A stretch of DNA of 64,000 nucleotides, from positions 1,312,001 to 1,376,000 of the forward strand of contig OY761556.1 in NCBI GenBank assembly GCA_963664705.1, in the 5' to 3' direction. The position numbers and the translations under genes were made by a program. Shown one piece after another: positions 1,170-63,877 of the stretch (the first letter of the stretch is position 1; every line of letters begins with the position of its first letter). Under the pieces are notes generated by a model, which made no database searches, had not been told where the DNA came from, and was given only the letters and a program-made list of their open reading frames with translations. This stretch comes from Acidobacteriota bacterium (lineage in GTDB: Bacteria; Acidobacteriota; UBA6911).

Positions 1170-1228
1170 ACGTCCCACATCCAACATCCAACGTCCAACG
1201 TCCAACGTTTCAACGTTTCAACGTTCCA
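1170..1228. repeat. Degenerate heptamer array (CCAACGT on +)
   Basis: tccaacg/tccaaca/ttcaacg units fill the gap between convergent stop codons. Confidence 0.9.
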
Positions 1229-1565
1229 CAACCTCTCCATTGGCACGGATCAGATAGGTGTGCTTGTTGGGAGCCAGCACGGTGGCTTCAATCATCTTAT
1301 TGTTGGCAAACTTTACCGTGAGCACCGAATCTCTTCCCCCCTGCCAGCGGTATTGAACCGTCGGCGGGTTTCCTTTGGGATCTTCGCCGGTTTTGGCACC
1401 GGGTGCGCCGGCAAGTTTGACCACCTGTTCGTAGGTCATTGACGGCTTGATTGTTGGAATGAACCTTCGATTAAAAACCGTTTCGGTAACCCCCGGCTGT
1501 CCTGCGAAGCAGACCAGCGTCGCCATACAAAGCAGTAATCCCATCCACAGCTTGCATCTATCCAT
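1218..1565 (-). CDS. Small exported hypothetical protein (BLIP/SmpA-like pattern)
   Basis: Start MDRCK chosen because the longer ORF start lies in the repeat array; signal peptide; IKPSMTYEQVVKLAG motif. Confidence 0.7.
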   Translation of the reverse strand: MDRCKLWMGLLLCMATLVCFAGQPGVTETVFNRRFIPTIKPSMTYEQVVKLAGAPGAKTGEDPKGNPPTVQYRWQGGRDSVLTVKFANNKMIEATVLAPNKHTYLIRANGEVVER

Positions 1566-1580
1566 CACGCCGCCCCCTGC

Positions 1581-1891
1581 CACGTCCCCCATCCCCCACG
1601 TCCAACGTCTCAACGTCCCAACGTTCCACGTCCCACGTCCCAACGTCCAACGTCCCAACGTCCCAACGTCCCAACGTCCAACATCCCACGTCTAACGTCC
1701 CAACGTCCAACGTTCATCGTCCCAACGTCCAACGTCCCAACGTCCAACGTCCAACGTCTCAACGTCCCACGTCCCAACGTCCAACGTTCCAACGTCCAAC
1801 GTCCAACGTTCCAACGTCCCAACGTCCAACGTTCACCGTCCCAACGTCCAACGTCCAACGTCCAACGTTCACCGTCCAACGTTCACCGTCC
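1581..1891. repeat. Degenerate 7/8-mer array (CCAACGT/CCCAACGT on +), ~300 bp
   Basis: Directly visible tandem units with local variants (gttcaccgtcc). Confidence 0.95.
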
Positions 1892-3661
1892 CCCACGCTC
1901 TCTCCTCAACAGCCAGACATCTGCTTCCGTGGTAGTCTGGCTGAAGTAAATCAGCCGGTCATCCGCGGAGACCGCGAAACCTCTTTTTGCAACCGACTGC
2001 GGAGCCACCGAAAGGACCGGATGCGTTCTTCCCGTGCGGCTGTCCAGAAGGTCGATCCCGCCATCGTGCGAAAACAGCAATCGCCGATCGTCGCTGAGCC
2101 AAACCGGATCCATTCCGTAGCGGGTGAGGCGTTCGAATTTATTCGAAGCCACGTGGTAAATTCCTATCCCCGCTTCCGATCCATCCGGGTTGATCAGCTG
2201 ACCCGCGATCATACTGCCTGTTTTTGACCAGGACCACGCCTGAAAATAGCCGCCAAACTGATCCAGGTGAATATCGAGCGGCACCTCCACCTTTTTCCTG
2301 AAATCCATCAGGAACGAACGGATGCCATAGATGGATCCGGCAATGCCCTTGCCGTCGGGAGACCAGAAGGGGGAGACCACCATGTGTTCGGGATAGTTCG
2401 TGATCCGCCGCAGCCCGGTCCCTTCGAAGTCAATGGTCCAGGCTTCATATTTGCCGCTGCGATTGGAAAAGAACGCCAGTTTTTTCCCGTCCGGCGACCA
2501 GCGCGGACCGCGATCCTGGTAAACATCGTTGGTCAGTTCCCGCAGCCCGATTCCGTCTGTTCCCACAACAAAGAGGTCTTCCTGTTTAGCCCAGGTGTTG
2601 AAGGCCAGCCACTTTCCATCGGGAGAAAGGGAGGGACGCGTGGCCTGCCTGGATCCGTGGGTGATCGCCAGCGGTTCGCCCCGGGCCAGTTCAGAGACGC
2701 TGTCGAACGGCACTTTATACAGGTTTGCGGTAAACGAGTACTGAACATAGGCGAGCCTGCCGCCGTTGGGGGCCACACTGATGTGCGAGCTGTCCGCGGA
2801 GGGGGTGGAGACCAGTTCCGGCTGCCCGAGCACTTTCCCTGTTTCCTCATCCATCGGAACGCAATACAGATTCATGTTGCCGGACCGGTCGCTGGAGAAG
2901 TAGAGCGCGTCTCCGGTGGCCGACCAGACCGGATTCCAGTTGATTGATCCCGTTGTCACCCGCACTGGCTGCGGGCTGGCTCCTTCCGGAATCTGCGCGG
3001 GGATCGTCCAGACATTCCGGCCGCCGCCGGTATCAATCGCCCAGAACGCAATGCGCTTGCCATGCGGCGACCACTGCGGCTGCACTGCATCCCCTTTATA
3101 GAGAAGCCGTCGTTCGCCCCGGGGATAATCGGCAATCCAGAGGCCGCTGCCGGTGGCCGCGCGGTCTTCGGGGCGTGTAATGCTCTCGCCGGCCAGCAGG
3201 ATTTTTCGCCCATCCGGCGACCATGCGGGATTGTAGCCAAAGTCCGTAACCTGCTGCACCGCATTGGTGGTTGCGTGCATGACAAAAATGCCGCCACCAT
3301 TCCGTTCGGAGCGGAATGCAATCAGCTTTCCATCGGGGGAAAATGCGGGCTGCGTGTCGTCGTCGGGGCAGTCTCGCGTGAGGTTCATTGGGATCCGGCC
3401 CCCGACTTTGGCCAGCATGATATCCCAGTTGCCCTCGGTGCGTGCGCTGTAGACGAATGTATTCTCCGCCGGGGAAAGGCTGGGGAAATACTCCGGTCCC
3501 GGCTGGCTCGTGAGCTGCAGAAAGGAAACAGTTTCATCCGCCCCGTTGCCGAAAAGGGTGCCTTTCAAATACGCGTGGATGATGAATGCCAGCGCAATGA
3601 CCACGCAGAGGCCCGCGATAATCTTGATAAGCTTCCCTGGAATGGATCCTGCGGACGACAT
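1883..3661 (-). CDS. Membrane-anchored TolB-like / PD40 beta-propeller protein
   Basis: N-terminal TM; repeated PxWSPDG / PAFSPDG motifs. Confidence 0.85.
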   Translation of the reverse strand: MSSAGSIPGKLIKIIAGLCVVIALAFIIHAYLKGTLFGNGADETVSFLQLTSQPGPEYFPSLSPAENTFVYSARTEGNWDIMLAKVGGRIPMNLTRDCPDDDTQPAFSPDGKLIAFRSERNGGGIFVMHATTNAVQQVTDFGYNPAWSPDGRKILLAGESITRPEDRAATGSGLWIADYPRGERRLLYKGDAVQPQWSPHGKRIAFWAIDTGGGRNVWTIPAQIPEGASPQPVRVTTGSINWNPVWSATGDALYFSSDRSGNMNLYCVPMDEETGKVLGQPELVSTPSADSSHISVAPNGGRLAYVQYSFTANLYKVPFDSVSELARGEPLAITHGSRQATRPSLSPDGKWLAFNTWAKQEDLFVVGTDGIGLRELTNDVYQDRGPRWSPDGKKLAFFSNRSGKYEAWTIDFEGTGLRRITNYPEHMVVSPFWSPDGKGIAGSIYGIRSFLMDFRKKVEVPLDIHLDQFGGYFQAWSWSKTGSMIAGQLINPDGSEAGIGIYHVASNKFERLTRYGMDPVWLSDDRRLLFSHDGGIDLLDSRTGRTHPVLSVAPQSVAKRGFAVSADDRLIYFSQTTTEADVWLLRRERGGR

Positions 3662-3731
3662 GCACGAGCCTCAAAACACGAGAATGCGGCCACGAAATCG
3701 GCATCTGGATGGAATGCAATTCGTGACGAAT

Positions 3732-5126
3732 TTAGCGGCTGACCACCAGGTCGTGAATCGCTTCCACAGCCTTCCGCGCATCAGCCTGTTCGACCAGCAA
3801 AGAGATGTTCAGCTCCGAGGATCCCTGGGCAATGGCAACGATGTTCACCCCGGCCTGCGCGACCGCGGAAAACGTTCTTCCCGCGATTCCTCGCAGTCCT
3901 TTCATCCCTTCCCCCACAACCGCCACGATCGACATCGGTTCCTGCAGCTTGATATCATCGATCGTCTTCCGGGCGATGTCCATTTCGAATTCCGCGCGCA
4001 GCTCTCTGACGGCCCGGGCGCAATCCTTTTGCGGAATGACCACGCAGATATTGTGCTCCGAGGATGCCTGCGAGATCATCATGACGTTGACCTGCACGCG
4101 GGCGAGTGTGTCGAAAATTCTCGCCGATACACCAGGCACGCCCACCATCCCGTTTCCTTCCACTGCGACAAGTCCCAGGTTGTCGATGGAAGTGACGTTC
4201 TTGACGACGCGCTCCACCGAATTGGAGACAGCGGCGATCAGCGTGCCGGGATGCGAAGGATTGAAAGTGTTCTTGATCCGGATCGGAATCTCATTTTCTA
4301 TCGCGGGGAGCATGGTTTTGGGATGAATCACCTTCGCCCCGAAATAGGACATCTCCGCCGCTTCCCGATAGGATATTTGCGGCAGCACCACCGCTCCCTT
4401 TACATAACGGGGGTCGGCCGTCATCACGCCATCCACATCCGTCCAGATCCAGATTTCCTCGCTCCCGAGCGCAGCTCCCACGATGGAACCGGTATAGTCC
4501 GATCCGCTTCGGCCGAGCGTTGTCGTCAGCCCATCCTCGGTGCTACCGATGAACCCGGTCACGACCGGTACGATTTTCTTCAGCAGCAGCGGCAGAATCC
4601 GCTCCCGGATCCTGTCGTTTGTCACCGAAAAATCAACCCCTGCCTCCCCAAACCTGGAATCGGTGCGCACCAGTTGCCTGGAATCGACAAATTCCGCGGC
4701 AATGCCGCTGTCGCTCAGAATGGCCGCGATCTGCATGCAGGACAGGATTTCTCCAAACGAGGCGATGGCATCCAGGGAACGGATGCTTAATTCCCTCAGC
4801 AGGCTGACGCCGTGATATAGATTTGCCAGTTCCTGAAAATTCCTCGAATGGCCTTCGAGCAGATCCCTTTTGCGATCCGGGTTCTGCACCAGGGCTTCAA
4901 CGATAGAAAAGTGCTTTTCCCGAAGCAGCTCGATATTTTTTTCGACGCGGAGAGCGTCCCGCTGCACGGCGAGCTGGGCGGTTTCGAGCAATATGTTGGT
5001 AACCCCGCCCATGGCTGAGGCGACAACCACGGGGTTGTTGGGCAGATTCGACCGCACGATCGAAGCGACTTCGCGGAGGCGCTGGATATCGCCTACAGAG
5101 GTTCCACCGAATTTCATCGTGATCAT
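3732..5126 (-). CDS. lysC: Aspartate kinase with ACT domains
   Basis: KFGGTSV, TTLGRSGSDYT, WTDVDGVMTADP, FGAKVIHP; start MITMKF follows GGAG. Confidence 0.93.
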   Translation of the reverse strand: MITMKFGGTSVGDIQRLREVASIVRSNLPNNPVVVASAMGGVTNILLETAQLAVQRDALRVEKNIELLREKHFSIVEALVQNPDRKRDLLEGHSRNFQELANLYHGVSLLRELSIRSLDAIASFGEILSCMQIAAILSDSGIAAEFVDSRQLVRTDSRFGEAGVDFSVTNDRIRERILPLLLKKIVPVVTGFIGSTEDGLTTTLGRSGSDYTGSIVGAALGSEEIWIWTDVDGVMTADPRYVKGAVVLPQISYREAAEMSYFGAKVIHPKTMLPAIENEIPIRIKNTFNPSHPGTLIAAVSNSVERVVKNVTSIDNLGLVAVEGNGMVGVPGVSARIFDTLARVQVNVMMISQASSEHNICVVIPQKDCARAVRELRAEFEMDIARKTIDDIKLQEPMSIVAVVGEGMKGLRGIAGRTFSAVAQAGVNIVAIAQGSSELNISLLVEQADARKAVEAIHDLVVSR

Positions 5127-5242
5127 ATTTTCAAACTCCAGGGGATTTTCCCTATTATCTGCTAGTATGGACAATTCGGAAAGAAAAACGCCGCGAATTC
5201 AACCATTATACGAACGGCTGGTCGATTCGTTCCATTCATAGC

Positions 5243-7198
5243 ATGGAGGAGGGCCGCGTGAAGATATTCGTTCCCGGGCGCGTCTGTTTGTTTGGTGAGC
5301 ATTCCGACTGGGCCGGAGGGCATCGCAGAATCAACTCCGAGATTGAAAAGGGGTATACGCTGCTTGCGGGTACGGACCAGGGAATCCATGCCAATGTGGA
5401 ATCGCACCCGAATGCGCTCGTGATCCACTCCACAACGCCCAGGGGAGAAAAGCAGGGCCCCTATGAGATTCCCATGCAGCCGAAAGCGCTGCTCGAAGAG
5501 GCACAGAAGGGAGGCTTCTGGAGCTATATCGCCGGCGTTGCCTACCAGGTGCTTACCCATTACCACGTGCGCGGCCTCGTAATCGATAACTACAAAACCG
5601 ACCTTCCCATGAAGAAGGGATTGTCTTCGAGCGCGGCCGTCTGTGTGTTGACGGCGCGGGCCTTCAATCGCATCTATGATCTGAAAATGACCGTGCGCGG
5701 CGAGATGGAACTTGCCTATCAGGGGGAGATCACAACTCCATCGCGCTGCGGCCGCATGGACCAGGGCTGCGCTTTCGGAAATCGGCCCATTCTGATGACC
5801 TACGACAGCGACCGCCTGGACGTCAAGGAACTGCGCGTGCGCGAAAATATGTACCTGGTGCTCGTGGACCTGGGCGGACAGAAAGATACCCTGGAAATTC
5901 TCGCACGGCTCAATCGCGCCTACCCCTTTGCTAAAAATGAGATGGAAGAGAAGATCCAGGAGCTATTCGGGTCGATCAACAAGCGGGTCGTGCACCAGGC
6001 CATGGACGCGCTGGAAAAGTCAGATGCGCAAAAGCTGGGCGAACTGATGGTCGAGGCGCAGGGTTATTTCGATCGCTATGCCCTGCCGGCCTGCCCGGAG
6101 GAGCTCACCGCTCCGCTGCTCCACAAAATTCTGGATTATGCGCCGCTCAAACCGCACATCTGGGGCGGCAAGGGTGTCGGTTCGCAGGGAGACGGGACCG
6201 CGCAACTGCTGGCGCGCAGCGAGTCGGACCAGAAGTCGGTTGTGGAAATCGTGGAGCGCGACCTGCGAATGTCCTGCCTCCCGCTGACGCTGAAAACAGG
6301 ACAGAAGGTGCGGAAAGCCGTCATCCCCGCGGCCGGGTTCGGCACGCGCCTGTTCCCGGCTTCCAAAGCCACAAAAAAGGAACTGTTTCCGATTGTGGAC
6401 CGCGACGGCATTGCCAAGCCGGTCATCCTGTTGCTCGTAGAGGAGGCACTGAACGCCGGCATCGAAGAAGTGATCCTCATTGTCCAGGAGCATGACCTCG
6501 GCGACTTCCGATCTTTCTTCGAAGAACAGGTGACCATCGAGAACTACAACAAACTTCCTAAGCACTTTCAGGACTATTCCCGGCGGCTCCTGGAAATGGG
6601 GCGACGCGTTTCGTTTGTGACCCAGCGGGCTCAGGAGGGATTCGGTCATGCGGTTTATTGCGCGCGGGAGGCCGTCGGCAATGAGCCCTTCCTTCTGATG
6701 CTGGGAGACCACCTGTACCGATCAAACACGGAAATGTCGTGTGCGCAGCAGTTGATCGCTTCCTTTGAAGAACATGGGATGAGCGCCCTCGGGCTGCGTC
6801 GTACCCCCGAGGCGCAGTTGGCCAACTTCGGAACCGCAACCGGCGTATGGCTGGAGAGTGAGCGGCTGCTGAGCATCAGCGAGTTTGCCGAAAAGCCGAC
6901 GGCGGATTATGCGCGCAATAACCTGAGAGTGCCCGGCCTTGGCGAAAACGAATACCTGACCGTTTTCGGCCAGTATATTATCAAGCCCATGCTCTTTGAC
7001 TATCTCGAGGAACACATCAAAAACAATGTGCGCGACCGCGGCGAATTCCAGCTTACGTCCGCGCTGGACCGGCTGCGGAAGGAGGATGGTTTCCTCGGCC
7101 TGATGATCGACGGCCAGCGCTATGATATCGGGCTGCCGGAATATTATCTGGAAACATTGCAGGCTTTCGCCTCGAATTCCGCGAAGCTCACCCCATGA
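5243..7198 (+). CDS. Bifunctional GHMP sugar kinase (GalK-like) / sugar-1-phosphate nucleotidyltransferase (GalU-like)
   Basis: PGRVCLFGEHSD, PMKKGLSSSAA and GRMDQ in the N-half; KAVIPAAGFGTRLFPASKATKKELFP and GEFQLT in the C-half. Confidence 0.85.
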   Translation: MEEGRVKIFVPGRVCLFGEHSDWAGGHRRINSEIEKGYTLLAGTDQGIHANVESHPNALVIHSTTPRGEKQGPYEIPMQPKALLEEAQKGGFWSYIAGVAYQVLTHYHVRGLVIDNYKTDLPMKKGLSSSAAVCVLTARAFNRIYDLKMTVRGEMELAYQGEITTPSRCGRMDQGCAFGNRPILMTYDSDRLDVKELRVRENMYLVLVDLGGQKDTLEILARLNRAYPFAKNEMEEKIQELFGSINKRVVHQAMDALEKSDAQKLGELMVEAQGYFDRYALPACPEELTAPLLHKILDYAPLKPHIWGGKGVGSQGDGTAQLLARSESDQKSVVEIVERDLRMSCLPLTLKTGQKVRKAVIPAAGFGTRLFPASKATKKELFPIVDRDGIAKPVILLLVEEALNAGIEEVILIVQEHDLGDFRSFFEEQVTIENYNKLPKHFQDYSRRLLEMGRRVSFVTQRAQEGFGHAVYCAREAVGNEPFLLMLGDHLYRSNTEMSCAQQLIASFEEHGMSALGLRRTPEAQLANFGTATGVWLESERLLSISEFAEKPTADYARNNLRVPGLGENEYLTVFGQYIIKPMLFDYLEEHIKNNVRDRGEFQLTSALDRLRKEDGFLGLMIDGQRYDIGLPEYYLETLQAFASNSAKLTP

Positions 7199-7968
7199 CA
7201 TTAATCGAACACATCAACAGAAACGCCGATCTTCATCCCGGGAAACCCGCGGTAATTTGCGGCGACCGCAGAATCACCTGGCAACAGTTTCAAGAGCGAT
7301 CGAACCGCGTTGCCAACCGCCTCACACGGCTCCGCGTGGCCAGGGGAGAGCGTGTTGCGATCGTTGCCGGAAACTGCCTGGAATATCCGGAAATCCTGTT
7401 CGGCGCCCTGAAAGCAGGCACCGTCACGGTCCCTGTCCCGATTGACACGACGCCGGAGGGCGTGGCGAAAGAGCTGCTGAAAGCGGATGCGAAGGCTGTC
7501 TTTGTGGCGCACCCGGCTTTGCCGCTGGCTGCCGGCTTCAGAAAATTATGCACCCGCGTCGTGTTCGAGGGGAGGGAAGAGGGCTGGCTTTCCTACGAAG
7601 GATTTCTGCTGGCCGGATCCGATTCGACCCCGACACAGGTTCCTTCGCCGGAGGATCTCTTCAGCCCCGGGACCACCCATGGCGAACGTCTGCGCTTCGC
7701 CGAGGCGTGCCGCCGTGAATGGCAGATCGAGGAAAATTCGGTCAGCCTGATCGGCACTCCGCTATACGCGGAGGCCACGCAGCGCCTATCCTTGCCGACG
7801 ATCCTGGCCGGGGGGACGCTGGTGCTGATGCGCTCGTTCGATCCTGTTGATTTTGTGGAGCTTGTCCGGCGGGAATCGTGCACCCACGCGATCCTGTTTC
7901 CGGAGCAAAAGGACACGAATTCCGACAATTTTGCAAAAAATGAAATTACCTACGTGGAATTCGTGTAA
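7195..7968 (+). CDS. Truncated AMP-binding (acyl-CoA synthetase-like) protein, possibly a pseudogene
   Basis: The N-terminal ANL-family pattern is present, but the P-loop is reduced to DLFSPGTT and the C-terminal half is missing. Confidence 0.6.
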   Translation: MTLIEHINRNADLHPGKPAVICGDRRITWQQFQERSNRVANRLTRLRVARGERVAIVAGNCLEYPEILFGALKAGTVTVPVPIDTTPEGVAKELLKADAKAVFVAHPALPLAAGFRKLCTRVVFEGREEGWLSYEGFLLAGSDSTPTQVPSPEDLFSPGTTHGERLRFAEACRREWQIEENSVSLIGTPLYAEATQRLSLPTILAGGTLVLMRSFDPVDFVELVRRESCTHAILFPEQKDTNSDNFAKNEITYVEFV

Positions 7969-8004
7969 TTCCCGGTAAATTTTGCTATTATTTCGCGGCA
8001 CTGT

Positions 8005-8078
8005 GGTGAGCGTAGCTCAGCTGGTAGAGCTCTGGATTGTGGCTCCAGCGGTCGCGGGTTCGAATCCCGTCGCTCACC
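8005..8078 (+). tRNA. tRNA-His(GTG)
   Basis: G-1 plus GTGAGCG/CGCTCAC acceptor stem, CTGGA-TTGTGGC-TCCAG anticodon arm, TTCGAAT T-loop; CCA not fully encoded; TATTAT -10 at ~7986. Confidence 0.95.
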
Positions 8079-8091
8079 CTTCCTCAAAAAA

Positions 8092-8583
8092 ATTCCAGAT
8101 TCCAGATTTCAGATTCCAGACGGGGTTCCGGCGGCATCAGCGCCATGCAAGCAGCCAAGCCCTTGCCGGCCAGACGCTGCCTCCTGCCTCCTGACTCCTG
8201 CCCAATTGTGGACACCCATGAATTGAGGATAAAAAACAGTGGGTGTTCACAATTGTGATTCCAGATTTCAGATTTCAGATTCCAGACTGGGTTCCGGCGG
8301 CATCAGCGCCATGCAAACAGCCAAGCCCTTGCCGGCCAGACGCTGCCTCCTGTCTCCTGTCCCCCTAACCACTAACCACTAACCTCTAACCAATTGTGGA
8401 CACCCATGAATTGAGGATAAAAATCGGTGGGTGTCCACAATTGTGCCACAATTGTCGATTCCGGATTCCAGACGGGGTCCCGGCGGCATTAGCGCCATGC
8501 AAGCAGCCCAGCTCCTGCCTGCCAGACGCTGCCTCCTGACTCCTGTCTCCTGACTCCTGCCTCCTGTCTCCTGTCCCCCTAAC
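8092..8583. repeat. Three-unit mosaic repeat (BIME-like): heptamer runs, ~64-bp core and REP hairpin
   Basis: Core GGGTTCCGGCGGCATCAGCGCCATGCAA...CAGACGCTGCCTCCTG at ~8123, ~8289, ~8475; ATTCCAG/ATTTCAG, CTCCTGN and CTAACCA runs; AATTGTGGACACCCA...TGGGTGTCCACAATT hairpins. Confidence 0.9.
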
Positions 8584-8641
8584 GACTTATTTGCATCGAA
8601 GCCCATAAACCAATATTATCTTCGCATAAGGGACCGGATTC

Positions 8642-9574
8642 ATGAGACCTATCATTGACGCGCATGTCCATATTGTGCCCCCGCATCTGTTGGGCAAAGC
8701 CGACGAACGCTTTGGCGTACGCGTGGAGCCTCACGGCATCAAACGATTTGCCGACGGCAGCGTTTACCAGTTCATGCCCGATTACATGGCCGACAGCTGC
8801 TTTCCCGTTGAGAGCCTGGTCCGGGCCATGGACAATCTCGGCGTCGAACGAGCCGTGATCCAGCAGTCTCCCTGTTTCAGCTTCAATGACGATGTAATCC
8901 AGGCCATTCAGAAACACCCGGACCGCCTGGCCGGCTCCATGATCATTGAACCCTGGAGCGAAGCGTGTCTCGATGAGATGGATAACGCCTGTCGATGCGG
9001 GCTGCGCATCATGAAATTTGAGATGTCGGGCGGGCTGGGATTTACGCACCCGAACATGTTTCCCGGTCTGAAGTTTGATTCCGCCCTGTTTGAAAAAATA
9101 TGGGCGAAGGCAGAGGCGCTCGGAATCGCCGTTACAATCGATCCGAGCCCCATCGGCAGCGCGGGATATCAGGTGGAGCGGCTGGAGCGCATGATTCTCC
9201 GGTTCCCGGGGCTGCGCTGGATCCTTTGCCATTTGGGTTTTCCTTTTCCCGGGATGCGAAATGACGTGGACAAATACCGTCGCTGGAGACAAATGATGGA
9301 CCTGGTCCGGCACCCAAATGTTTGGGTCGACATATCGGCGCTGCCGGCTCTCTTCAGCGAAGAGGGATATCCGTTCCCATCCGCGATGGATTTCCTACGG
9401 GAAGTCATTGAGGCGTACGGGGCAGACAAGCCGGTATGGGGATCCGACATCCCTGGTACGCTGTGTTTCGGAACCTACGCGCAATTGGCGGATGCTTTTG
9501 AAAAGTGCGCCTTGTTTACCGAAGAGCAAAAACAACGGATGTTTTACGCGAACGCGCTCCATGCCTATTTCTAG
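8642..9574 (+). CDS. Amidohydrolase_2 family protein
   Basis: IIDAHVH, LCHLG, WGSDIP, MFYANA motifs. Confidence 0.88.
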   Translation: MRPIIDAHVHIVPPHLLGKADERFGVRVEPHGIKRFADGSVYQFMPDYMADSCFPVESLVRAMDNLGVERAVIQQSPCFSFNDDVIQAIQKHPDRLAGSMIIEPWSEACLDEMDNACRCGLRIMKFEMSGGLGFTHPNMFPGLKFDSALFEKIWAKAEALGIAVTIDPSPIGSAGYQVERLERMILRFPGLRWILCHLGFPFPGMRNDVDKYRRWRQMMDLVRHPNVWVDISALPALFSEEGYPFPSAMDFLREVIEAYGADKPVWGSDIPGTLCFGTYAQLADAFEKCALFTEEQKQRMFYANALHAYF

Positions 9575-9630
9575 GTCGGCAGTTTGCCTGCGCGCCACAG
9601 ATTAATCCTGTCCATGGAGGATGAAACACA

Positions 9631-10269: not shown

Positions 10270-10328
10270 GGCCACCGCCGAATCGAGACGCCGACATACG
10301 CCGACTTCGCCGACGCATGCGGATAGGA

Positions 10329-13082: not shown

Positions 13083-13124
13083 GAACGCCTTTCAAATAGA
13101 CGGCAGAACCTCTTTTTGTATGCC

Positions 13125-13150: not shown

Positions 13151-13160
13151 ATCCTTGGCG

Positions 13161-48620: not shown

Positions 48621-48624
48621 CCGC

Positions 48625-50715: not shown

Positions 50716-51095
50716 TTGGGACGTTTGGACGTTGGACGATGGGACGATGGGACGTTGGACGTTGGACGTTGGACGATGGGACGATGGGACGTTGGACGTT
50801 GGGACGTTGGACGTTGGACGATGGGACGTTGGACGTTGGACGTTGGACGTTGGGACGTTGGGACGATGGACGTTGGCCGATGGGACGATGGGACGATGGG
50901 ACGTTGGGACGTTGGACGTTGGACGATGTAGAAATGTGGACACCCACCCATTGGACGTTGGACGATGGGACGTTGGACGTTGGACGTTGGACGTTTGGAA
51001 ATGTGGACACCCACCAAAAATATGGACACCCACGGTCTGCCACGGTCTGACCCACGGTCTGAGTTTTGTCGCTAAATCGGTGGGTGTCCAGAATT
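50716..51095. repeat. GGACGTT/GGACGATG array interleaved with GGACACCCAC REP-like elements
   Basis: Tandem 7/8-mers 50716-50997; REP copies at ~50935, ~51003, ~51023, ~51079; CCACGGTCTG x3. Confidence 0.93.
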
Positions 51096-51100
51096 GACGA

Positions 51101-51886
51101 TTACACGTCCGCGAGGGTCAGGGGAACCGGCGCCTTTCCGTCAATATCCCGAAAACCGTAATCCCTGGCGACCTGGGCTGCGATCAGCACCCGTCCCGTT
51201 TTTTCCATGATCCCGGGATCCGAGGCGAGAGCAGCAACCGCCCGCCCCACGAACTGCGTCGATTCGGAGTTGCTGAGATCCAGCCATGCGGCCGATTGCA
51301 TAACCTTTTCGGTGCGCACAAGCCCCGGATACAACGACACCACCGCCACCCGATGGTCGCGCAGTTCGTGCGCCATGTCGGAGGTCATCTTGTCCGTGGC
51401 CGCCTTGGCCACCCCGTAGGCCGTATTGCCGATATATTTCTGCGCCGCCCAGAAGGAGATGTTGACGATCAGCCCACTCGCCTGGCGCACCATCCACGGA
51501 GCCGCCAGCTGGGCGGCCACATAGGCCGACCGCACCCCGGCCTGGAACATCGCATCCCACCGCCCGATCGGCTGCTGCCAGAACGGACGCGGCCAGGTGA
51601 ACTCGCCACCCTCCATCATGTTTTCATAGCCGCCCCAGGCATTGTTCACCAGAATGTCCAGCCGCCCGTGCCGGCCCGTGATCCGGTCAAACAGCGAGCG
51701 GACCTGCGCATCCTCCCGGTGATCGCAGCGAATGGCCGTCCCATGGCCATCGACGCTTCCGTCTTCCAGCGACCGGCCCGTGAAATAAACCGTGGCGCCC
51801 GCGCTGAAGAGCTCCTGCGCAATCCCTTTGCCCACGCCATAGCTGCCGCCCGTTACCAGGGCAACCTTTCCATCCAGACTCATCAT
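51101..51886 (-). CDS. SDR family oxidoreductase (DHRS1-like)
   Basis: TGGSYGVG, LVNNA, YGVAK. Confidence 0.9.
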   Translation of the reverse strand: MMSLDGKVALVTGGSYGVGKGIAQELFSAGATVYFTGRSLEDGSVDGHGTAIRCDHREDAQVRSLFDRITGRHGRLDILVNNAWGGYENMMEGGEFTWPRPFWQQPIGRWDAMFQAGVRSAYVAAQLAAPWMVRQASGLIVNISFWAAQKYIGNTAYGVAKAATDKMTSDMAHELRDHRVAVVSLYPGLVRTEKVMQSAAWLDLSNSESTQFVGRAVAALASDPGIMEKTGRVLIAAQVARDYGFRDIDGKAPVPLTLADV

Positions 51887-54050: not shown

Positions 54051-54054
54051 TCCC

Positions 54055-54167
54055 TTAGACGTTAGACGTTGAGACGTTAGACGTTGAGACGTTGGACGTT
54101 GGACGTTGAGACGTTGCACGTTGAACGTTCCAACGTTCCAACGTGTAACGTCCAACGTCCAACGTTC
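54055..54167. repeat. AGACGTT/GGACGTT array switching to AACGTCC (internally inverted)
   Basis: Directly visible. Confidence 0.9.
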
Positions 54168-54178
54168 CGAGAGGCGGT

Positions 54179-55399: not shown

Positions 55400-55672
55400 A
55401 ACGTTGCACGTTGGACGTTTGGACGTTGGACGATGGGAACGTTGCACGTTGCGACGTTGGACGTTAGACGTTGGGACGTTGGACGATGGGACGGGAAACG
55501 TTGGACGTTGAACGTTGGGACGTTTGGACGTTGGACGTTTGGACGATGGGAACGTTGGATGTTGGAACGTTGAACGTTTGAAGAAACTGGATCAAGGCCG
55601 AATAATCCGTGTGGGCTCCCGTTCCCACGTCCCTCGTCCAACGTCTAACGTCCAACGTCTAACGTCTAACGT
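55400..55672. repeat. Inverted pair of heptamer arrays (GGACGTT 55400-55579; AACGTCC/AACGTCT 55619-55672)
   Basis: Directly visible between convergent genes. Confidence 0.92.
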
Positions 55673-55673
55673 A

Positions 55674-56705
55674 TTATTCCGCCTTGATCTGATCCCACAT
55701 TTTATTGTATTTCGCCGTATCCGCTCCAAGATCGTCAATCACCTCGCACTTCGCCTTCACCTGCGGTGCCAGGAATACGGCCGGGTTATTGCGCAGTTCC
55801 GCGTTCACCTTCGGATAGCTCGTCTGGTTCGGGCAGACATACGAAAGGAAATTCGTATTCTCCGCCGCCACTTCCGGATCGTGGATAAAATTAATAAACG
55901 CATGCGCGAGCTTCGCTTCTTTCGCGTTCTTCAGAATCACCAGGTCGTCGCACGAAATCGACGTCCCTTCCGCCGGGATCACAAACTGAATATCCGCATT
56001 CTCCTTTTGCACCTGCAAAAGATCGCCGCTGAAGCCGTGGACGAGCAGAAATTCTCCCGACGCGAGTCCGCCCTTGTATTGCTCCGATTCGAACTTCGCC
56101 AGGTTCTTTTTCCACGCGATGACCACGTCGCGCGCCGCGGCGAGCTCCCTGTCGTCCCGCGAATTCAGGCTGTACCCGAGCGATTTCAGCGCGGCACCCA
56201 GCGTCTCGCGCATGTCGTTGAGCATGGTCATCCGCCCTTTCAGCGCCGCCTGGTTGAACATCGTCCACGAAGGCGTGAAGTTCTGCACCTTCGACTTCAA
56301 ATAGGCGATCCCGGTATTGGTCAGCATGTACGGGACGCTGTGCTCCATCTTCGGATCCATCGCGATCTTCAGGTAGTCGGTGTCGACATGCTTCAGGTTC
56401 GGCAGCTGGCTGTGGTCCATCACCTGAAGATACCCCTGATTGTTCATTATTTTGACGAAATAGCTGCTGGGGGTCAGCAGATCGTACCCGGTCGCGCCCG
56501 CCTTGATCTTGGCGTACATCGATTCATTCGATTCAAAGGTGTCGATGACGATCTTGCAGCCGTGCTCTTTTTCAAAACGCTGCAGCAGCTCCGGCTTGAA
56601 ATAGTCCGCCCAGGTGTAGATCTTCAATTCAGGCGTCTGGCGCCGGCAGCCCATGGGCATACAGCACAGGATGAGGGACAGAAGAATCAAAGACCGGAAT
56701 TTCAT
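55674..56705 (-). CDS. potD: Spermidine/putrescine ABC transporter substrate-binding lipoprotein
   Basis: YTWADY, FESNE, GYDL, GYSLNS motifs; operon context. Confidence 0.9.
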   Translation of the reverse strand: MKFRSLILLSLILCCMPMGCRRQTPELKIYTWADYFKPELLQRFEKEHGCKIVIDTFESNESMYAKIKAGATGYDLLTPSSYFVKIMNNQGYLQVMDHSQLPNLKHVDTDYLKIAMDPKMEHSVPYMLTNTGIAYLKSKVQNFTPSWTMFNQAALKGRMTMLNDMRETLGAALKSLGYSLNSRDDRELAAARDVVIAWKKNLAKFESEQYKGGLASGEFLLVHGFSGDLLQVQKENADIQFVIPAEGTSISCDDLVILKNAKEAKLAHAFINFIHDPEVAAENTNFLSYVCPNQTSYPKVNAELRNNPAVFLAPQVKAKCEVIDDLGADTAKYNKMWDQIKAE

Positions 56706-57472
56706 ACGACCTCCTTGGTTAAGCGCTGGCTGAAAAAGACCGTCAGAAAAGTGATCAGCAGCAGGATAGACGAGAGCGCGTTGATCAGCGGCGGCGACCC
56801 GTACTTGATCATGCTGTAAATGCGTATCGGCAGCGTGGTGGAGCCGGGTCCGGCCACGAAGAACGTGATGACGAAATCATCGATGGACAGCGTGAAGGCG
56901 AGCAGCCCTCCCGCGACAATCCCGGGCATCAGCAGCGGCAGCAGCACGCGCCACAGCGTCGTCCACCAGTCCGCGCCCAGGTCCTGTGCCGCTTCCACGA
57001 TCGCATAATCGAAATCCTGCAGCCGCCCCAGCACCACCATCGCCACGTAGCTGATGCAGAACGTCACGTGCGCCAGGAAAATGGTGAAGAGCCCCAGCTC
57101 GATGTGCAGCGCGACAAAGAACAGCAGCAGGCTGATCCCCATCAGGATTTCCGGCACCACCAGCGGCGTGTAGATCAGGGCGTAATGGAATTTCTGCAGC
57201 CGCGAGGAGTAGCGGTGCAGCGCAATCGCCGCGGTAGTCCCAAGGATCACGGACACAATGGTGGCGCTCATTGCAATCAGCAGACTGTTGGTCAGCGCGT
57301 GCCAGATTTCCCGCTCCCGGTACAGCTGCCGGTACCAGTGCAGCGACCAGCCCTGCCACGAACCGCCGAAGCGCGAGCCGTTGAACGAATACAGGACCAG
57401 CACGAAGATCGGCAGGTAGAAGAAAATCAGCAGCCCCCACGTGATGATCAGCGGAAAACGGCTCCGTTTCAT
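56702..57472 (-). CDS. potC: Spermidine/putrescine ABC transporter permease
   Basis: EAAQDLGA, FTLSIDDF; start MKRSRF overlaps the potB stop. Confidence 0.9.
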   Translation of the reverse strand: MKRSRFPLIITWGLLIFFYLPIFVLVLYSFNGSRFGGSWQGWSLHWYRQLYREREIWHALTNSLLIAMSATIVSVILGTTAAIALHRYSSRLQKFHYALIYTPLVVPEILMGISLLLFFVALHIELGLFTIFLAHVTFCISYVAMVVLGRLQDFDYAIVEAAQDLGADWWTTLWRVLLPLLMPGIVAGGLLAFTLSIDDFVITFFVAGPGSTTLPIRIYSMIKYGSPPLINALSSILLLITFLTVFFSQRLTKEVV

Positions 57473-58347
57473 GCGTCCTCCTCGATCAGCGGCGCGGCTT
57501 TTCCCTTTTTTTTCTGCAGCACCATGACCGCCAGCAGCGGCAGCAGCACCGCCAGGATCAACAGCGCCGACAGCCCGCTCGCGTGCGGCAGGTTGCGGTC
57601 GACGAAAACGCGCTGGGCGATCTTGTTCCCCAGCATCTCTCCGCCGGGCCCTCCCACGATATCCGGGATGACATACGAGCCGAGCGCCGGGATGAAGACC
57701 ACCAGGATGGACGTCCAGAGCCCGCGGCGAATTCCCGGCAGGAACACGTATATAAAGGACTGCCAGCGCCGCGCGCCCAGGTCCTGCGCCGCTTCCATCA
57801 ACCGGAAGTCGAATTTTTCCGCGGCCGCGTAAATCGGGAGGATGGCGAAAGGCAGAAATGTATACACCATCACCAGCCAGACCGCCCACGCGTTGTACAG
57901 CAGAGAGGCCTGCGGGCTCAGGAGGTGCAGGAACACCAGCGTCTTCTTGATCATCCCCTCCGGATGGAGCAGCGTTTTCCAGGCAAAGATGCGGATCAGG
58001 AAACTGGTCCAGAAAGGGATGATGACGAGCAGCAGCAGGATCTGCCGCCAGCGCTGGCTCGCGCGCGCCAGGCAGTAACCGGCGGGCGTTGCCAGGAAGA
58101 TGCAGGCCGCCGTCGTCAGCAGGCTGAGATAGATCGTGCGCCAGATGATGATCGGGTAGTTCGGGTTGCCCAGGCTGCGCAGCGTCGCCAGCGTCCAGCC
58201 TGCACCGATCCCGCCATACAGGTCGGTCGGTTTGAAGGTGATGGCAAAGACGATGAGCGTGGGGATCAGGAAGAGCAGCACCAGCCAGAGCAGCGACGGC
58301 GCCGTGATCAGCCATTCCTGGATCTTTTTGTTGCGAGCCATATTCAT
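57469..58347 (-). CDS. potB: Spermidine/putrescine ABC transporter permease
   Basis: IPFWTSFLIR, LPFAILPIY, EAAQDLGA. Confidence 0.9.
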   Translation of the reverse strand: MNMARNKKIQEWLITAPSLLWLVLLFLIPTLIVFAITFKPTDLYGGIGAGWTLATLRSLGNPNYPIIIWRTIYLSLLTTAACIFLATPAGYCLARASQRWRQILLLLVIIPFWTSFLIRIFAWKTLLHPEGMIKKTLVFLHLLSPQASLLYNAWAVWLVMVYTFLPFAILPIYAAAEKFDFRLMEAAQDLGARRWQSFIYVFLPGIRRGLWTSILVVFIPALGSYVIPDIVGGPGGEMLGNKIAQRVFVDRNLPHASGLSALLILAVLLPLLAVMVLQKKKGKAAPLIEEDA

Positions 58348-58432
58348 CACCTGCTGCGCATTGGAAGCGCCGGCGTCTCGACGAATTCCGCCTATTATTT
58401 GTTCTAAGCCCTGCGACGCGAGCGAAGCCATA

Positions 58433-58631
58433 GGCCCGGAGGGCCGAAAGAGCGTAGCCGGGGGTGAGCGCTTTTTGCGAACCCCCGGTTGGAGAGAAGC
58501 CTAGTAAGAGCCCTGGAGGGGCGAAAGATCGGCATTCTGCCGCCCCTTCAGGGCTTGTTACCAGCCTAATCCAATCCGGGGGTTCGCTTCGCTTCACCCC
58601 CGGCTACGTTCTGGCCGCCCCTCCGGGGCTA
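58433..58631. repeat. Nested palindromic REP/MITE-like element between potA and potB
   Basis: GCCCGGAGGG..TAGCCGGGGGTG ... CACCCCCGGCTA..CCCTCCGGGGC; inner GCCCTGGAGGGGCG/CGCCCCTTCAGGGC. Confidence 0.8.
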
Positions 58632-58665
58632 GGCCTTCATGATGCCTTCACGATTGTGTCACACG

Positions 58666-59823
<1,158 letters not shown>

Positions 59824-59879
59824 CCCCTAGCCCTTCCATCCGAGGTGTTGTCGCCAGCCGTTCCCGCGCCGTTTTCGCG

Positions 59880-60614
59880 CTAATCGAGATTAAAGGTGAG
59901 CGTCGCGCCGCCGTACAACGTCTGTCCGCGGGGAGTCACGCTGTTGTTCCGGATCGCTTGCCGCGCATTCTCGCTGAGCGCGGTCGAGTAGCCGAGCATC
60001 GGTTCGAACGTCACGCGCTTGCCCAGCGGCAGCGTCAGCGATGTCTGGAAATCGGCGCTGTAGAAATTCGAGAAATCCTTTCCCTCATCGTTCGTTCCCA
60101 TGTAGGAATTCTTCAGCACGTAGCCGGCATGCGCCTTGATGTTTAACGCTGCCTTCTTGCCGAGAGGGATGGCGGGCTCCAGCCCTACCTGTATGTAGGA
60201 TCCCTTCCCGTAATTTACGTCGCGATAAATGTAGAGGGAAGGTTTGAGCGCATCGTCGTGGCTCATGCCGGTGTAAATCTCGTCGCTGTCAGGCCCTTCG
60301 TTGACGCCGTAGTGGATATAGCCGATCTCGTAGCTGTATTTGTCCTTCTCCTTGGTGTACGAGGCGGTGATATCGGCTTCAGACCAGCGGCGCGGGTCGA
60401 ATTGATAATTCGCCCACAGGTTCAGGGCAAAGCCGTTATTGCCGACCGTCACGGAAGGCTGGAAAACTCCACCCTCGCTCAACCGCATGCCGCGCCACAT
60501 ATAATGAGAGAAAACCGCGCCGGAGACTTCGAATTGCTTGTCCTGGGCAGGAAGAACCTCGGGAATGATTGTAAGCAAGATCAGGAGCAGTCCGCAGAGC
60601 TTGAGATTTTTCAT
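59880..60614 (-). CDS. Putative outer-membrane beta-barrel (TorF/TIGR02001-like)
   Basis: Signal peptide; SHYMWRG; alternating beta pattern. Confidence 0.7.
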   Translation of the reverse strand: MKNLKLCGLLLILLTIIPEVLPAQDKQFEVSGAVFSHYMWRGMRLSEGGVFQPSVTVGNNGFALNLWANYQFDPRRWSEADITASYTKEKDKYSYEIGYIHYGVNEGPDSDEIYTGMSHDDALKPSLYIYRDVNYGKGSYIQVGLEPAIPLGKKAALNIKAHAGYVLKNSYMGTNDEGKDFSNFYSADFQTSLTLPLGKRVTFEPMLGYSTALSENARQAIRNNSVTPRGQTLYGGATLTFNLD

Positions 60615-60699
60615 CGAAGACCTCGACGTGGGAAAAGGAACATTGATTCCATTAAAAGTGCGGAGTGTATGAGGTATGGGGGGGGATGTCAAGGGGGAG

Positions 60700-60877
60700 G
60701 TTGGACGTTGGGACGTTGGGACGTTGGACGTTGGGAACGTTGGACGTTGGGACGTTGGACGTCGGGACGTTGGACGTTGGGACGTTGGAACGTTGGGGAC
60801 GTTGGGAACGTTGGACGTTGGACGGTGGGGCGTTGGAGGTTGGACGTTGGGACGTTGGACGTTGGGACGTTGGACGC
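60700..60877. repeat. GGACGTT/GGGACGTT array
   Basis: Directly visible. Confidence 0.93.
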
Positions 60878-60890
60878 GGGAGGGGGGAGG

Positions 60891-61649
60891 TTAGCGACGG
60901 GAGGAGGGAGATTGCAAAGGCGGCCAGTCGTTCAGGCCGATGACGGCTTCGGCCGGGATTTCGTGCCCGCCATCAAAAGGGACAAACGTAACCTGCAGGC
61001 CTGCCTTTACCATGTCCATCCGCAGACGCTCCGCGAGGTCGTACGGCAGGATGTTGTCGCCGCGCCCGTGGGCCATGAAGACCGGAAGCCCTTTGCGCCG
61101 CGCCATGCCGGCCCGCCAAGCTGCTTCATTGACTGGCGTCCCCGAAAAGATAATCAGCGCCGACAGAGGTTCGTCCGACATAAAAGCGATCTGGCAGGCG
61201 ACCATGGCTCCCTGCGAAAAGCCGCCCAGGAGGAACGGGTGTTTGGCCGAATTCCCTTCGGCCGACATCACGGCGCGCACCTCCTGCGCGGCCGATTCCA
61301 GTCCGCCGGGCGCGTCGAGCGACAGGTCGATGCCGTTCTGGTGGATGCGCAGGTGCGCCGCGAGATCCAGGTCCCACCACGCAAGCCCTCCCGTGGACCC
61401 GTCGGTGCGCAGCGCCGGCACCGTGGCCTCCGGAAACAGGAAGCGCCCGTTGCCGGGGAGCGCGATACTTTCCGAAAAGGGAAGCCAGTGCTCGGCGGAA
61501 GAGCCATAGCCGTGCAGCAGCAGAAGCGTCGGCGGCCCCTCTCCCCCGCGCTGAATCACGCGCAGCGGCATTTTGGGCGAAAGCATCAGCACCACTGCCG
61601 TCACCGCCACCGCAACCAAAATAACAATCAGTATGTATTTCCCGCGCAT
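60891..61649 (-). CDS. Phospholipase/carboxylesterase
   Basis: LLHGYG, GFSQG, HGRGD, GGHEI. Confidence 0.9.
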   Translation of the reverse strand: MRGKYILIVILVAVAVTAVVLMLSPKMPLRVIQRGGEGPPTLLLLHGYGSSAEHWLPFSESIALPGNGRFLFPEATVPALRTDGSTGGLAWWDLDLAAHLRIHQNGIDLSLDAPGGLESAAQEVRAVMSAEGNSAKHPFLLGGFSQGAMVACQIAFMSDEPLSALIIFSGTPVNEAAWRAGMARRKGLPVFMAHGRGDNILPYDLAERLRMDMVKAGLQVTFVPFDGGHEIPAEAVIGLNDWPPLQSPSSRR

Positions 61650-61653
61650 AGCT

Positions 61654-61773
61654 CACGTTCCACGTTCCCACGTTCCACGTTCCAACGTTCAACGTTCAAC
61701 GTTCAAACGTCCAACGTCCAACGTCCCAACGTCCCAACGTCCAACGTCCAACGTCCAACGTCCAACGTCCAAC
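61654..61773. repeat. CCAACGT array
   Basis: Directly visible. Confidence 0.92.
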
Positions 61774-61779
61774 CTCTTT

Positions 61780-63681
61780 TCACCATCCCCCACCGCCGCC
61801 GCCGCCGGAATGTCCGCCACCTCCGCCGCCGCTGCTTCCGCTGGAACTGGGCGCCGCAACGCCCGCCGCCATCGTTCCGGCCACGGCCGCCCACGACGCG
61901 CTGGCTCCGGCGCCTCCGAACGCGCCGCCTCCACCGCTCCACGACCGGCTTCCGCCGCCGCTTCCCGTGAAGCTTCCGGTCGAGCCAATCGTGTGCGCGA
62001 TCTCCGTCTCTTGTCCGCCAAAGGAATGAAACCACTCATCCACCGAATCGCCAAGCCCGAACGCCAGCAGGTAGGGATACCACGCGTCCTGCAGCTCCGG
62101 GTTCGCCTGCGCCAGCTGCAGCCGGAAGTATTCGCGCGCGGCGGCAAATTTCTGGCGAAAGAGGATCTGGACCTGGTTTTCGCGCGACATAGCTGCGTTC
62201 AGCACGCTGTTGAAAGCTGCGATCAGCAGGACCATCACCCCCGCCGCTACCCAGGCGCTGATGGGCAGTGGCCCCAGAAGCATCGCCACCGTGAAAACCC
62301 CCGTCATGATGGTCATCGGTATCATCATCATGATGAAGTGCAGACGCAGCCTGACCAGCCGCTTGCGATAGAGGCAGGCCAGGACGATGGCGGGAATATA
62401 CGGCACGAACACCGAGGCCGCGCCGATGATCCCTGCCGCCAGGTCCGGCAGCCCGGCAATGCGGTCCGTCATGGCCGAAAGAACTCCAATCACAATCAGC
62501 GCGACTCCCGCGGCCACCAGCGCGAAGGTTTTTTTCCACGACGGCTTGCTGCCGGTGCCGGAGGTTGCCAGCAGATCCTGCATCTGGATCTCGAGCGGCT
62601 TCCTGATTTTCGACGCCGGGTCGAACCCGGAGCTCTCGTAATGCGCTTTGACGCGCTCGGTGTTGGTTTCGTTGCCTCCGTCGTAGAACAGCGCGTTCAC
62701 GAGATCGACCTCGTACCCTTCAAAGCCGCCTCCCTGTTTCCAGAGGTGAAGCACTCCGGAATGCTTGGATTTCCCCCGCACCTCGCTCCTCAGCTTTCCT
62801 TCGAGAACCAGGCGTGCGAGCACCGCCGCGACTTCGGCCGAGCCGACGCTTTCATCCCAGATCGTGCCGACCAGTTCCGGCGGGTATTGCAGGATGTTGG
62901 TTTCAATCCACCCGCGGTTGATGGAGGACGCGGGAAGGAGCGGGGCAAACCGGCCCAGCGCTTTTTCCCGTTGATAGAAGCGGGAGATCAGTACGGGAAT
63001 CGCCACGAACAGGATGATCAGGAGCGTTCCGCGCACGCCGAACGAAAGCCCGGCACGCGCAGCCGCAGGCTTGCCCGATCCCTCGTAGCGCAGCGGAATC
63101 GTCACGAGATACCCGCGGCCGGGCGGGATCGGCCCGAATCCGGTCGGCCCTTCGAATGCCTGCATCGGCTTCCAGACCGGGTCCAGTGTGAGCGACAGCG
63201 AAAATTTTTCAATCATGCCGGACCGGTCCGGGAAAGCGAAATCATGGTCCAGCAGGTAACGGCTATCCTCCGGAACCAGGATATTCGAGAGCGTGTACCG
63301 GAGCACATAGGTGATTTCCTTGTTGTCGAAAGCGGGATCCGTGGGAAGCCGGCTTCTCCAGCGCAGATGGCTGGTGTCGATCCATTTATATTCGTCGATT
63401 TCCGAGAGGCTGCCGCGGCTCAGCTCTATTTCCTGGCCGGTGGCAGAATCAACGCGCATGAGGCTTTCAAGGTGGAGACTCTGGCCCAGCCGAAGGTTGA
63501 AGGTGCGTGCGCCGCCGTTCCAGTTTCCGTTGAAGACCATGGACTGCCGTTCTTCAACGTGCAGTCTGCCGTCGGCATCGAGCTGCGCGGTGACCGTCAT
63601 GTCGCGCCAGTAGAGAGTTTGTTCCGCTGCCGCGGCGAAGGGGCTCGATAAAACCAATATTATGAGAAGCCTTCCGATCAT
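61780..63681 (-). CDS. DUF2207-like membrane protein
   Basis: Signal peptide, DGRLHVEE, several TMs, PYLLAFGL, Gly-rich tail ending GGGGGGGW. Confidence 0.85.
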   Translation of the reverse strand: MIGRLLIILVLSSPFAAAAEQTLYWRDMTVTAQLDADGRLHVEERQSMVFNGNWNGGARTFNLRLGQSLHLESLMRVDSATGQEIELSRGSLSEIDEYKWIDTSHLRWRSRLPTDPAFDNKEITYVLRYTLSNILVPEDSRYLLDHDFAFPDRSGMIEKFSLSLTLDPVWKPMQAFEGPTGFGPIPPGRGYLVTIPLRYEGSGKPAAARAGLSFGVRGTLLIILFVAIPVLISRFYQREKALGRFAPLLPASSINRGWIETNILQYPPELVGTIWDESVGSAEVAAVLARLVLEGKLRSEVRGKSKHSGVLHLWKQGGGFEGYEVDLVNALFYDGGNETNTERVKAHYESSGFDPASKIRKPLEIQMQDLLATSGTGSKPSWKKTFALVAAGVALIVIGVLSAMTDRIAGLPDLAAGIIGAASVFVPYIPAIVLACLYRKRLVRLRLHFIMMMIPMTIMTGVFTVAMLLGPLPISAWVAAGVMVLLIAAFNSVLNAAMSRENQVQILFRQKFAAAREYFRLQLAQANPELQDAWYPYLLAFGLGDSVDEWFHSFGGQETEIAHTIGSTGSFTGSGGGSRSWSGGGGAFGGAGASASWAAVAGTMAAGVAAPSSSGSSGGGGGGHSGGGGGGGW

Positions 63682-63726
63682 AATGCCTCCCGGGTTTGAT
63701 GAAATGAGGCCCCACTTTACCGCGAT

Positions 63727-63877
63727 AACGTGAAACGTTGCAACGTTAGACGTTAGACGTTGGGACGTTGGACGAGAAAACCGTTGGACGAAAAAACGTT
63801 GGACGTTGAACGTTGGGACGTTGGACGATTGGACGTTGGACGAGAAAACGTTGGACGATCGGACGTTGGACGATGGG
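63727..63877. repeat. GGACGTT array with GGACGAGAAAACGTT variants
   Basis: Directly visible. Confidence 0.9.

Follow-up and report, generated by a model that had tools for sequence, protein, structure and literature searches.

How does one short and degenerate DNA word come to occupy gap after gap between the genes of a bacterium? The question was raised by a stretch of 64,000 nucleotides, here called the window (G000:1312001-1376000), from the genome under study, G000, an Acidobacteriota bacterium assembled as a single 6.89-Mb contig, whose acidobacterial identity TIGR03436 also indicates. A preliminary description had listed nine intergenic arrays of GGACGTT and related units, and direct inspection of the sequence found all nine in place with the units described. 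By a strict rule, 12 array segments were delimited in the window against a maximum of 1 (mean 0.005) in 200 shuffles, and 54 ACGT arrays in the whole genome against 1 in one shuffle. Unit length across 530 units of the ACGTT arrays is 7 nt in 312 cases and 8 nt in 203. That each array carries private variants was borne out by an array-by-unit G of 1149 versus 884 +/- 22, with 0/500 permutations equally high. The arrays at 1170-1228 and 54055-54167 are each spanned with 0 differences by Logan contigs, which excludes a consensus artefact at these two arrays, although the contigs were assembled separately from public runs probably of the source sample and are no independent check. Array indels of -7, +14 and +8 nt are also present in such contigs and may stem from other arrays.

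Arrays at gene ends

The array at 1170-1228 (minus strand, G-type on that strand) begins directly after the stop of a VWA gene and supplies the stop of a predicted 124-aa gene (1218-1592), while the long array at 1581-1891 (minus strand) follows and contains the stop codon of a TolB-like gene (1883-3661). The G-type array at 50716-50997 (plus strand) is rich in the private unit GGACGAT and is broken by a GGACACCC motif. At 54055-54167, between the stop of an ADC-family gene and the start of an EAL gene, a G-arm is followed directly by a C-arm, an empty hairpin to which no strand is assigned. A G-arm at 55400-55579 (plus strand) begins at the stop of the EAL gene and pairs with a C-arm at 55619-55672 (minus strand) that begins at the potD stop; orthologues of potD in four congeners end without an array. 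The G-arm at 60700-60877 (plus strand) and the C-arm at 61654-61773 (minus strand, after the stop of a DUF2207 gene) bracket an esterase gene (60891-61649), and the array at 63727-63877 (plus strand) is the downstream arm of a four-helix-bundle gene, P0001.

The earlier statement that arrays never interrupt a gene needs amending: arrays do sit at stop codons, but they frequently extend into the final codons and provide the stop. With gene calls from our own dicodon caller, the first ACGT core lies inside the predicted CDS at 14/42 array-bearing gene ends, including the predicted gene ending at 1218, and the array-supplied stop typically reads CGT-TGA. Likewise, arrays are truly absent from the 20-44 kb island of the window (0/11 junctions), but this is not special to the island, since junctions are also empty at 1.9-20.2 kb (0/12 filled) and at 43.5-50.6 kb (0/3). 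At 50.6-64 kb, 6/12 junctions are filled.

Polarity is pronounced. Beyond the stop, the sense strand carries the G-type word at 30/42 gene ends. G000 has 17 array groups of mixed orientation; a G-arm opens every one of them and a C-arm closes 15, and between the arms lies a passenger gene, a short loop or nothing at all. The suggestion that the arrays are methylation sites at ACGT leaves this polarity unexplained; the observed/expected ratio of ACGT outside arrays, 0.83, is uninformative on methylation. Three-unit words recur within arrays (62 versus 47; 1/500 shuffles), rare four-unit words common to different arrays number 0 versus 0.4 expected, a comparison of low power, and no flank or loop sequence common to the G000 arrays was found. 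Given the private unit mixes, the within-array word repeats and the absence of shared four-unit words or flanks, it is likely that each array expanded where it lies, starting from a short seed. A dependence of unit similarity on the distance between arrays was considered and set aside (rho -0.09; 41/1000). Mirror-copying of arms was considered and is weak at best (longest common stretch 19.1 versus 17.0, 121/5000; shared variants 653/5000), and pairing between cognate arms is not superior to that between swapped ones (duplex energy 1670/5000). In G061-G063, arms of like kind enclose two conserved loop families, so whole elements were probably copied there.

Confinement to one neighbourhood

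The arrays had been taken to lie at many unlinked loci. This did not hold: 47/54 ACGTT arrays fall within 1.313-1.479 Mb, about 170 kb. Counted as loci, 23/30 lie in 1.30-1.49 Mb against 0.83 expected, and 21/29 within 100 kb of P0001 against 0.84 expected. With increasing distance from P0001 the filled junctions number 13/19 (up to 10 kb), 4/17, 7/28, 3/29 and 7/51 out to 110 kb, then 0/141, 2/424 and, beyond 500 kb, 4/3454. Once the cassette's own arms were removed, the array centre was fitted at 1390-1394 kb (interval 1382-1418). This is the position of a gmd/fcl/wzc/wza exopolysaccharide island, its genes named from sequence and Pfam, 14-18 kb from P0001; a centre placed at P0001 lowers the log-likelihood by 4.3 to 7.6. 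Other repeats gather there as well, namely a REP family unrelated to the ACGTT arrays (8/71 versus 1.96 expected) and CTCCTGA arrays (3/17 versus 0.47 expected).

Several candidates for a local cause were set aside. Replication position does not fit, the skew extremes lying at 2.005 and 5.293 Mb, away from the cluster. An ORF6N gene at the fitted centre (G000:1389608-1390129) is bracketed by arms, but its four best orthologues lack ACGT arms, which makes it a passenger. A wza-like gene stands beside the closest homologue of P0001 (locus L239), but its G000 orthologue is at 3.73 Mb, outside the island.

Locality around the cassette is not universal. In G061, the cassette has 8/30 loci no more than 100 kb away, against 0.69 expected; in G062 locality is weak (2/17 within 100 kb, p 0.056). 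The other four heptamer families of G000 are not local to their own PF05635 genes, nor is the AGGTT family of G017 to its gene, by a pattern suited only to G017, G029 and G071.

The four-helix-bundle gene P0001 and heptamer words

The 3' end of P0001 closes the window (63887-64000, minus strand). The full gene (G000:1375887-1376255) encodes 122 aa and matches PF05635 as its sole Pfam family, with 105 bits against a cut-off of 33.8 (E 3e-30); its product also matches the Xcc0516 structure 2GSC (E 1.5e-13). We know of no catalytic activity for this fold. Two further ACGTT arms follow past the window end, at G000:1376267-1376351 and G000:1376403-1376507. The gene is not inside a 23S rRNA gene, its neighbours being DUF2207 and LPG-synthase genes. 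[quoted passage not shown] Homo-oligomer prediction gave P0001 a score of 0.35 against 0.00 for the best control, though likeness to 2GSC may account for this pass; 21/30 solved pairs and 0/23 single chains attained the mark, and at least 84% of contacts agreed between runs at a pLDDT of at least 84.

G000 has five PF05635 genes, every one with a flanking heptamer array whose family differs from gene to gene; the other four families (GATTCCA, ATTCGTC, CTCCTGA and TACTGAC) are spread over the chromosome. GTDB yielded 77 homologue loci with sufficient flank; 64 of them, versus 168/1259 control windows, have a periodic array no farther than 160 nt away, and 34 have inverted arms. A quick tree of 97 proteins, from which four rows with stops and the frameshifted G000 gene were left out, placed P0001 in a 13-row clade (SH-aLRT 93) containing 11 ACGT-armed genes from Acidobacteriota and Chloroflexota, the rest being two rows of one AGGTT-armed gene. 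Arm labels, which are automatic and crude, require 24 changes on this tree versus 52 when shuffled; they indicate clustering, not co-evolution, since kin share labels. ACGTT arrays lie on either side of the closest metagenome homologue (66%), and the closest homologues of P0001 in other phyla mostly share the ACGTT word. Among 80 metagenome matches, ACGT arms occur in 4 of the best 6 and in just 8 of the best 40, so the word follows the sub-clade only. In all, the ACGTT arrays are very probably arms of P0001's cassette.

The GC3 peak and sites empty here but filled in congeners

Over the same region GC3 climbs from about 0.60 to 0.70-0.76 and then returns, smoothly, across about 300 kb, with a fitted centre at 1389.6 +/- 3.4 kb. 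Of all 40-kb windows in the genome, the three with the highest GC3 fall in the array region; a second high at 2.56 Mb is prophage-like by eye. Flank genes are uniformly intermediate (sd 0.037 versus 0.039), and the gradient reaches flanks without arrays (rho -0.47, 122 genes). Genes adjacent to arrays show a residual GC3 no higher than other genes (p 0.53). Intergenic GC is flat, at 0.46-0.51 versus 0.49, whereas biased conversion predicts a rise. No GC3 peak was found around the cassette of G061, despite the local array enrichment.

The exact GGACGTT trimer occurs in 1/60 relatives and the wider ACGTT family in 9/29 congeners. Two of these, G006 and G028, have clusters of their own, with 310/478 matches within 161 kb and 154/307 within 207 kb, respectively, and much of that cluster DNA is orthologous to G000 2.28-2.63 Mb, where there are 0 matches. 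The comparison of empty and filled sites could be made directly: 14/40 arrays of G006 and G028 were mapped by both flanks, and 14/14 junctions are empty in G000, two of them being counted twice. This result upholds the earlier proposal of a spreading element that local slippage alone could not seed. G006 and G028, about 90% alike, have many filled junctions in common, with differing unit order.

The polysaccharide island lies inside both of these clusters, beside other neighbours than in G000. GC3 of the cluster genes is 0.73-0.78, versus 0.56-0.63 for their G000 orthologues; outside the cluster G028 shows 0.63-0.67 versus 0.57-0.62 in G000 (five bins), and the pot genes reverse the relation, with 0.84 in G000 and 0.73 in G028. 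Because G006 and G028 are sisters, this reciprocal test amounts to one contrast. In G021 and G022 the island occupies other places, where arrays number 0-3 per 20 kb and GC3 is 0.63-0.68; since these genomes carry the island without the cluster, the island is not sufficient for the cluster or the GC3 peak. An ABC transporter of the island, present in 6/7 array-rich genomes and 0/23 others, was rejected as the determinant, as kin are not independent and G021 and G022 have no cluster there. An ACGT-armed four-helix-bundle gene was not found in the array-rich but fragmented assemblies of G006, G028, G021 and G023; the one PF05635 match of G022 belongs to the ACGT group and has arrays at a distance of about 130 nt.

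Origin of the arrays and of their confinement

On balance, we favour an explanation in which gene-less cassette arms are seeded at gene ends and expanded by slippage, while their confinement and the GC3 peak come from a recombination hot region at the island. The P0001 protein, a predicted oligomer like the Avd and Xcc0516 pentamers, may recognise its own word in the hairpin and would help a short seed to insert, using host repair enzymes. Seeds would land at gene ends and then lengthen by slippage, leaving gene-less arms. Frequent strain exchange around the island would supply recombination intermediates and spread new arrays, and the same recombination may raise GC3, whether through biased conversion or because selection becomes more effective. 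We consider it likely that a persistent recombination hot region exists at this island; the indirect signs of it are GC3 and repeat enrichment in one genome per species.

The main rival, rather unlikely in our judgement, makes the cassette primary: it would seed arrays in cis within about 100 kb, and its inverted arms would provoke breaks and repair, creating both the recombination domain and the GC3 peak. It is favoured by the 13/19 filled junctions within 10 kb of P0001 and the 21/29 loci within 100 kb, by G061, in which local enrichment without a GC3 peak means that locality is possible without the peak, and by a report that break-induced mutation falls off with distance from the break, with '60 kb' mentioned (PMC3607216). 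However, the fitted centre is 14-18 kb off the gene, G006 and G028 yielded no cognate gene, array-adjacent genes lack a higher residual GC3 while the gradient extends into array-free flanks, and G062 gives only 2/17 (p 0.056). In a bolder form, the small four-helix-bundle protein and a co-evolving heptamer word would together define a bacterial recombination domain as a cis-acting, motif-directed hot spot, to which PRDM9 would be loosely analogous. Acting in cis, the protein would plant hairpin arrays at stop codons up to about 100 kb away; breaks or strand exchange driven by the arrays would over time build up an isochore-like peak of GC3 that travels with the locus. We regard this as doubtful. 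A foreign origin of the 170-kb block, from an array-rich donor of higher GC through a single import or many, or else an assembly chimera, would suit the GC of the region (0.56-0.58 versus 0.53), an assembly contamination figure of 6.18% and the existence of G010, which has a GC3 of 0.85, the island and ACGTT arrays. It is nevertheless quite improbable, as GC3 changes smoothly with flank genes uniformly intermediate, paralogues are not in excess (6/96 versus 29/300), and trees of four pot proteins and aspartate kinase group G000 with G028 and G024, away from G010; the trees cover six genomes only, and eight backbone genes give the same grouping. The two window gene sets tested look native. As these trees match the backbone and there is no paralogue excess, the GC3 change likely arose in place.

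Mobile or templating machinery was also looked for. The sole PF01797 (Y1 transposase) match of the genome, at G000:1439920-1440261, does lie inside the cluster, which takes up some 2.5% of the genome. The repeat that flanks it is a different one, however, a REP family of its own with 71 loci genome-wide. An array centre at the transposase is rejected (log-likelihood 9.6 to 17 lower), and the G006 and G028 cluster DNA examined has no homologue, so that mobilisation of the arrays by this enzyme is most unlikely. No more credence goes to an RT adding units from a short RNA template in the telomerase-like manner first suggested, a scheme in which the four-helix-bundle protein might serve as a cofactor resembling Avd. 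In its favour, the DGR RT depends on the related Avd for making cDNA (PMC6182149, PMC10053308), and rare four-unit words common to arrays number 0 versus 0.4 expected, at low power. Against it, the sole RT is group-II-intron-like and stands beside an IS3-type element at least 2.5 Mb away; Rfam matches in the window are tRNAs only, giving no ncRNA template; unit order shows within-array duplication, with multi-unit words recurring as slippage gives; and one template would not yield array-specific unit mixes. Integron cassettes were rejected too: GTTGGAC, GTTGAAC and GTTAGAC fit the attC core consensus GTTRRRY, but no integrase in the genome passes the cut-off (0/4 TIGR02249 matches; best 87.6 of 265 bits).

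Relation to known systems and significance

Intergenic heptamer repeats include the STRR of cyanobacteria. Stop-proximal, paired heptamers were described in Xanthomonas (GGGAATC) and in Nostoc (GGGGA(C/T)T; PMC4692102), and TAACTGA heptamers lie between genes in Beggiatoaceae (PMC4679880). The ACGTT arrays share with them 7-nt tandem units between genes, a G-rich sense strand near or over the stop, and convergent pairs. They differ in their degenerate 7/8-nt mix, in their cognate four-helix-bundle gene, and in occupying one 170-kb domain with a GC3 peak, not the whole chromosome; these three features are absent from the portions of the published heptamer-repeat accounts that were compared. A PF05635 protein inside an inverted-repeat stem is also found in the ORF-bearing 23S rRNA intervening sequence with S23p, where variable GACAGAT heptamers precede the ORF and RNase III cleaves (PMC4990558), but the P0001 cassette lies between protein-coding genes, with dozens of gene-less arms nearby. 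By analogy, the cassette may work like REPIN-RAYT, in which a gene has its own repeat family, several families exist per genome, and gene-less inverted doublets lie between genes (PMC3116915); here, in contrast, the gene is not an HUH transposase, and the arms are variable tandem arrays with no common loop in G000. REPs in SBW25 showed no non-random spacing above 200 bp (PMC3116915). PF05635 resembles Avd, whose pentamer is needed by the RT (PMC10053308, PMC6182149).

The array region resembles the E. coli rfb recombination hot region of more than 100 kb (PMC4866539) in size and in centring on a polysaccharide locus. A GC3 peak of 0.15 together with a repeat family was not found in the literature searched, and the hot region here is a candidate, derived from GC3 and repeats. 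Yahara et al. found a strong correlation between GC and recombination in 1/10 species (PMC4866539), and recombination and GC were positively related in 82% of species in another study, which ascribed this to selection (PMC11879095). Searches of main texts, with most subscription papers outside their reach, found no publication linking PF05635 genes with dispersed heptamer arrays and none on a repeat family confined to a GC3 peak.

The ACGTT arrays thus belong to a known repeat class, with a gene partner unpublished in the literature searched, to the extent of its text consulted; the confinement to one neighbourhood and the GC3 peak that moves with it are new here. For abundant 7-nt intergenic repeats in bacteria it was stated that 'no mechanism is evident' (PMC4679880). 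This locus offers a candidate protein that has a specific word, orthologous sites both empty and filled, and a gradient with distance, through which binding and cis action become testable. The GC3 peak that follows the island to new neighbours may serve as a natural experiment on whether recombination raises bacterial GC, and whether by conversion or by selection (PMC11879095).

Neighbouring elements of the ACGTT arrays

Other repeats occur among the ACGTT arrays, the degenerate GGACGTT-type tandem repeats of the studied genome (G000). A motif, GGACACCCAC, is repeated, with an inverted copy, at window 50935-51115, where it is interleaved with an ACGTT array; the motif is present too at G000:1304229. 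CTCCTG-family arrays lie within the domain that holds most ACGTT arrays, at window 8512-8574 and at G000:1462994, and one of the two directly adjoins an ACGTT array. Two outlying arrays (G000:2206.9 kb and 6554.3 kb) are surrounded by genes with raised GC3 (0.63-0.73), and these arrays are possibly blocks transferred out of the domain.

A REP-family copy at window 58364-58640 belongs to the family on the flanks of the sole Y1 transposase of the genome (G000:1439920-1440261); this family occupies 71 loci, 9 of which lie within 100 kb of the transposase versus 2.1 expected.

Genomic islands

The low-GC, tRNA-adjacent island at window 20197-43500 carries an integrase, a D5 primase, type I restriction-modification genes and an AbiJ-NTD4 protein, as well as a helicase and DUF2290 pair with strong PADLOC matches. 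The polysaccharide island (G000:1381-1415 kb) includes genes for an ABC transporter, PqqD, an O-antigen ligase, a TPR protein and a dual-specificity phosphatase; among 30 genomes from the genus, 6 have the transporter. The high-GC3 block at G000:2558-2583 kb encodes proteins that, assessed by eye, resemble the terminase, portal and capsid proteins of phages.

Related cassettes

The four-helix-bundle gene with GATTCCA arms (G000:361642-361990) is frameshifted past about 85 codons, and despite this frameshift its family is the most numerous. Three other genomes (G061-G063) carry short elements (loci L220-L238), roughly 130-150 nt long and with arms of the ACGTC type, whose loops fall into two conserved families; these elements are copied as whole units and occupy shared orthologous sites. 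GxxExxY (PF13366) gene sites were found at G000:4472310, 2163578 and 3800606, and at G028:C7:765000 in another genome; inverted repeats of 9-10 nt, a separate set for each, flank 3/3 genes, and tandem partial gene copies occur at 2/3. GxxExxY genes with their own inverted repeats are a cassette type parallel to the four-helix-bundle cassette.
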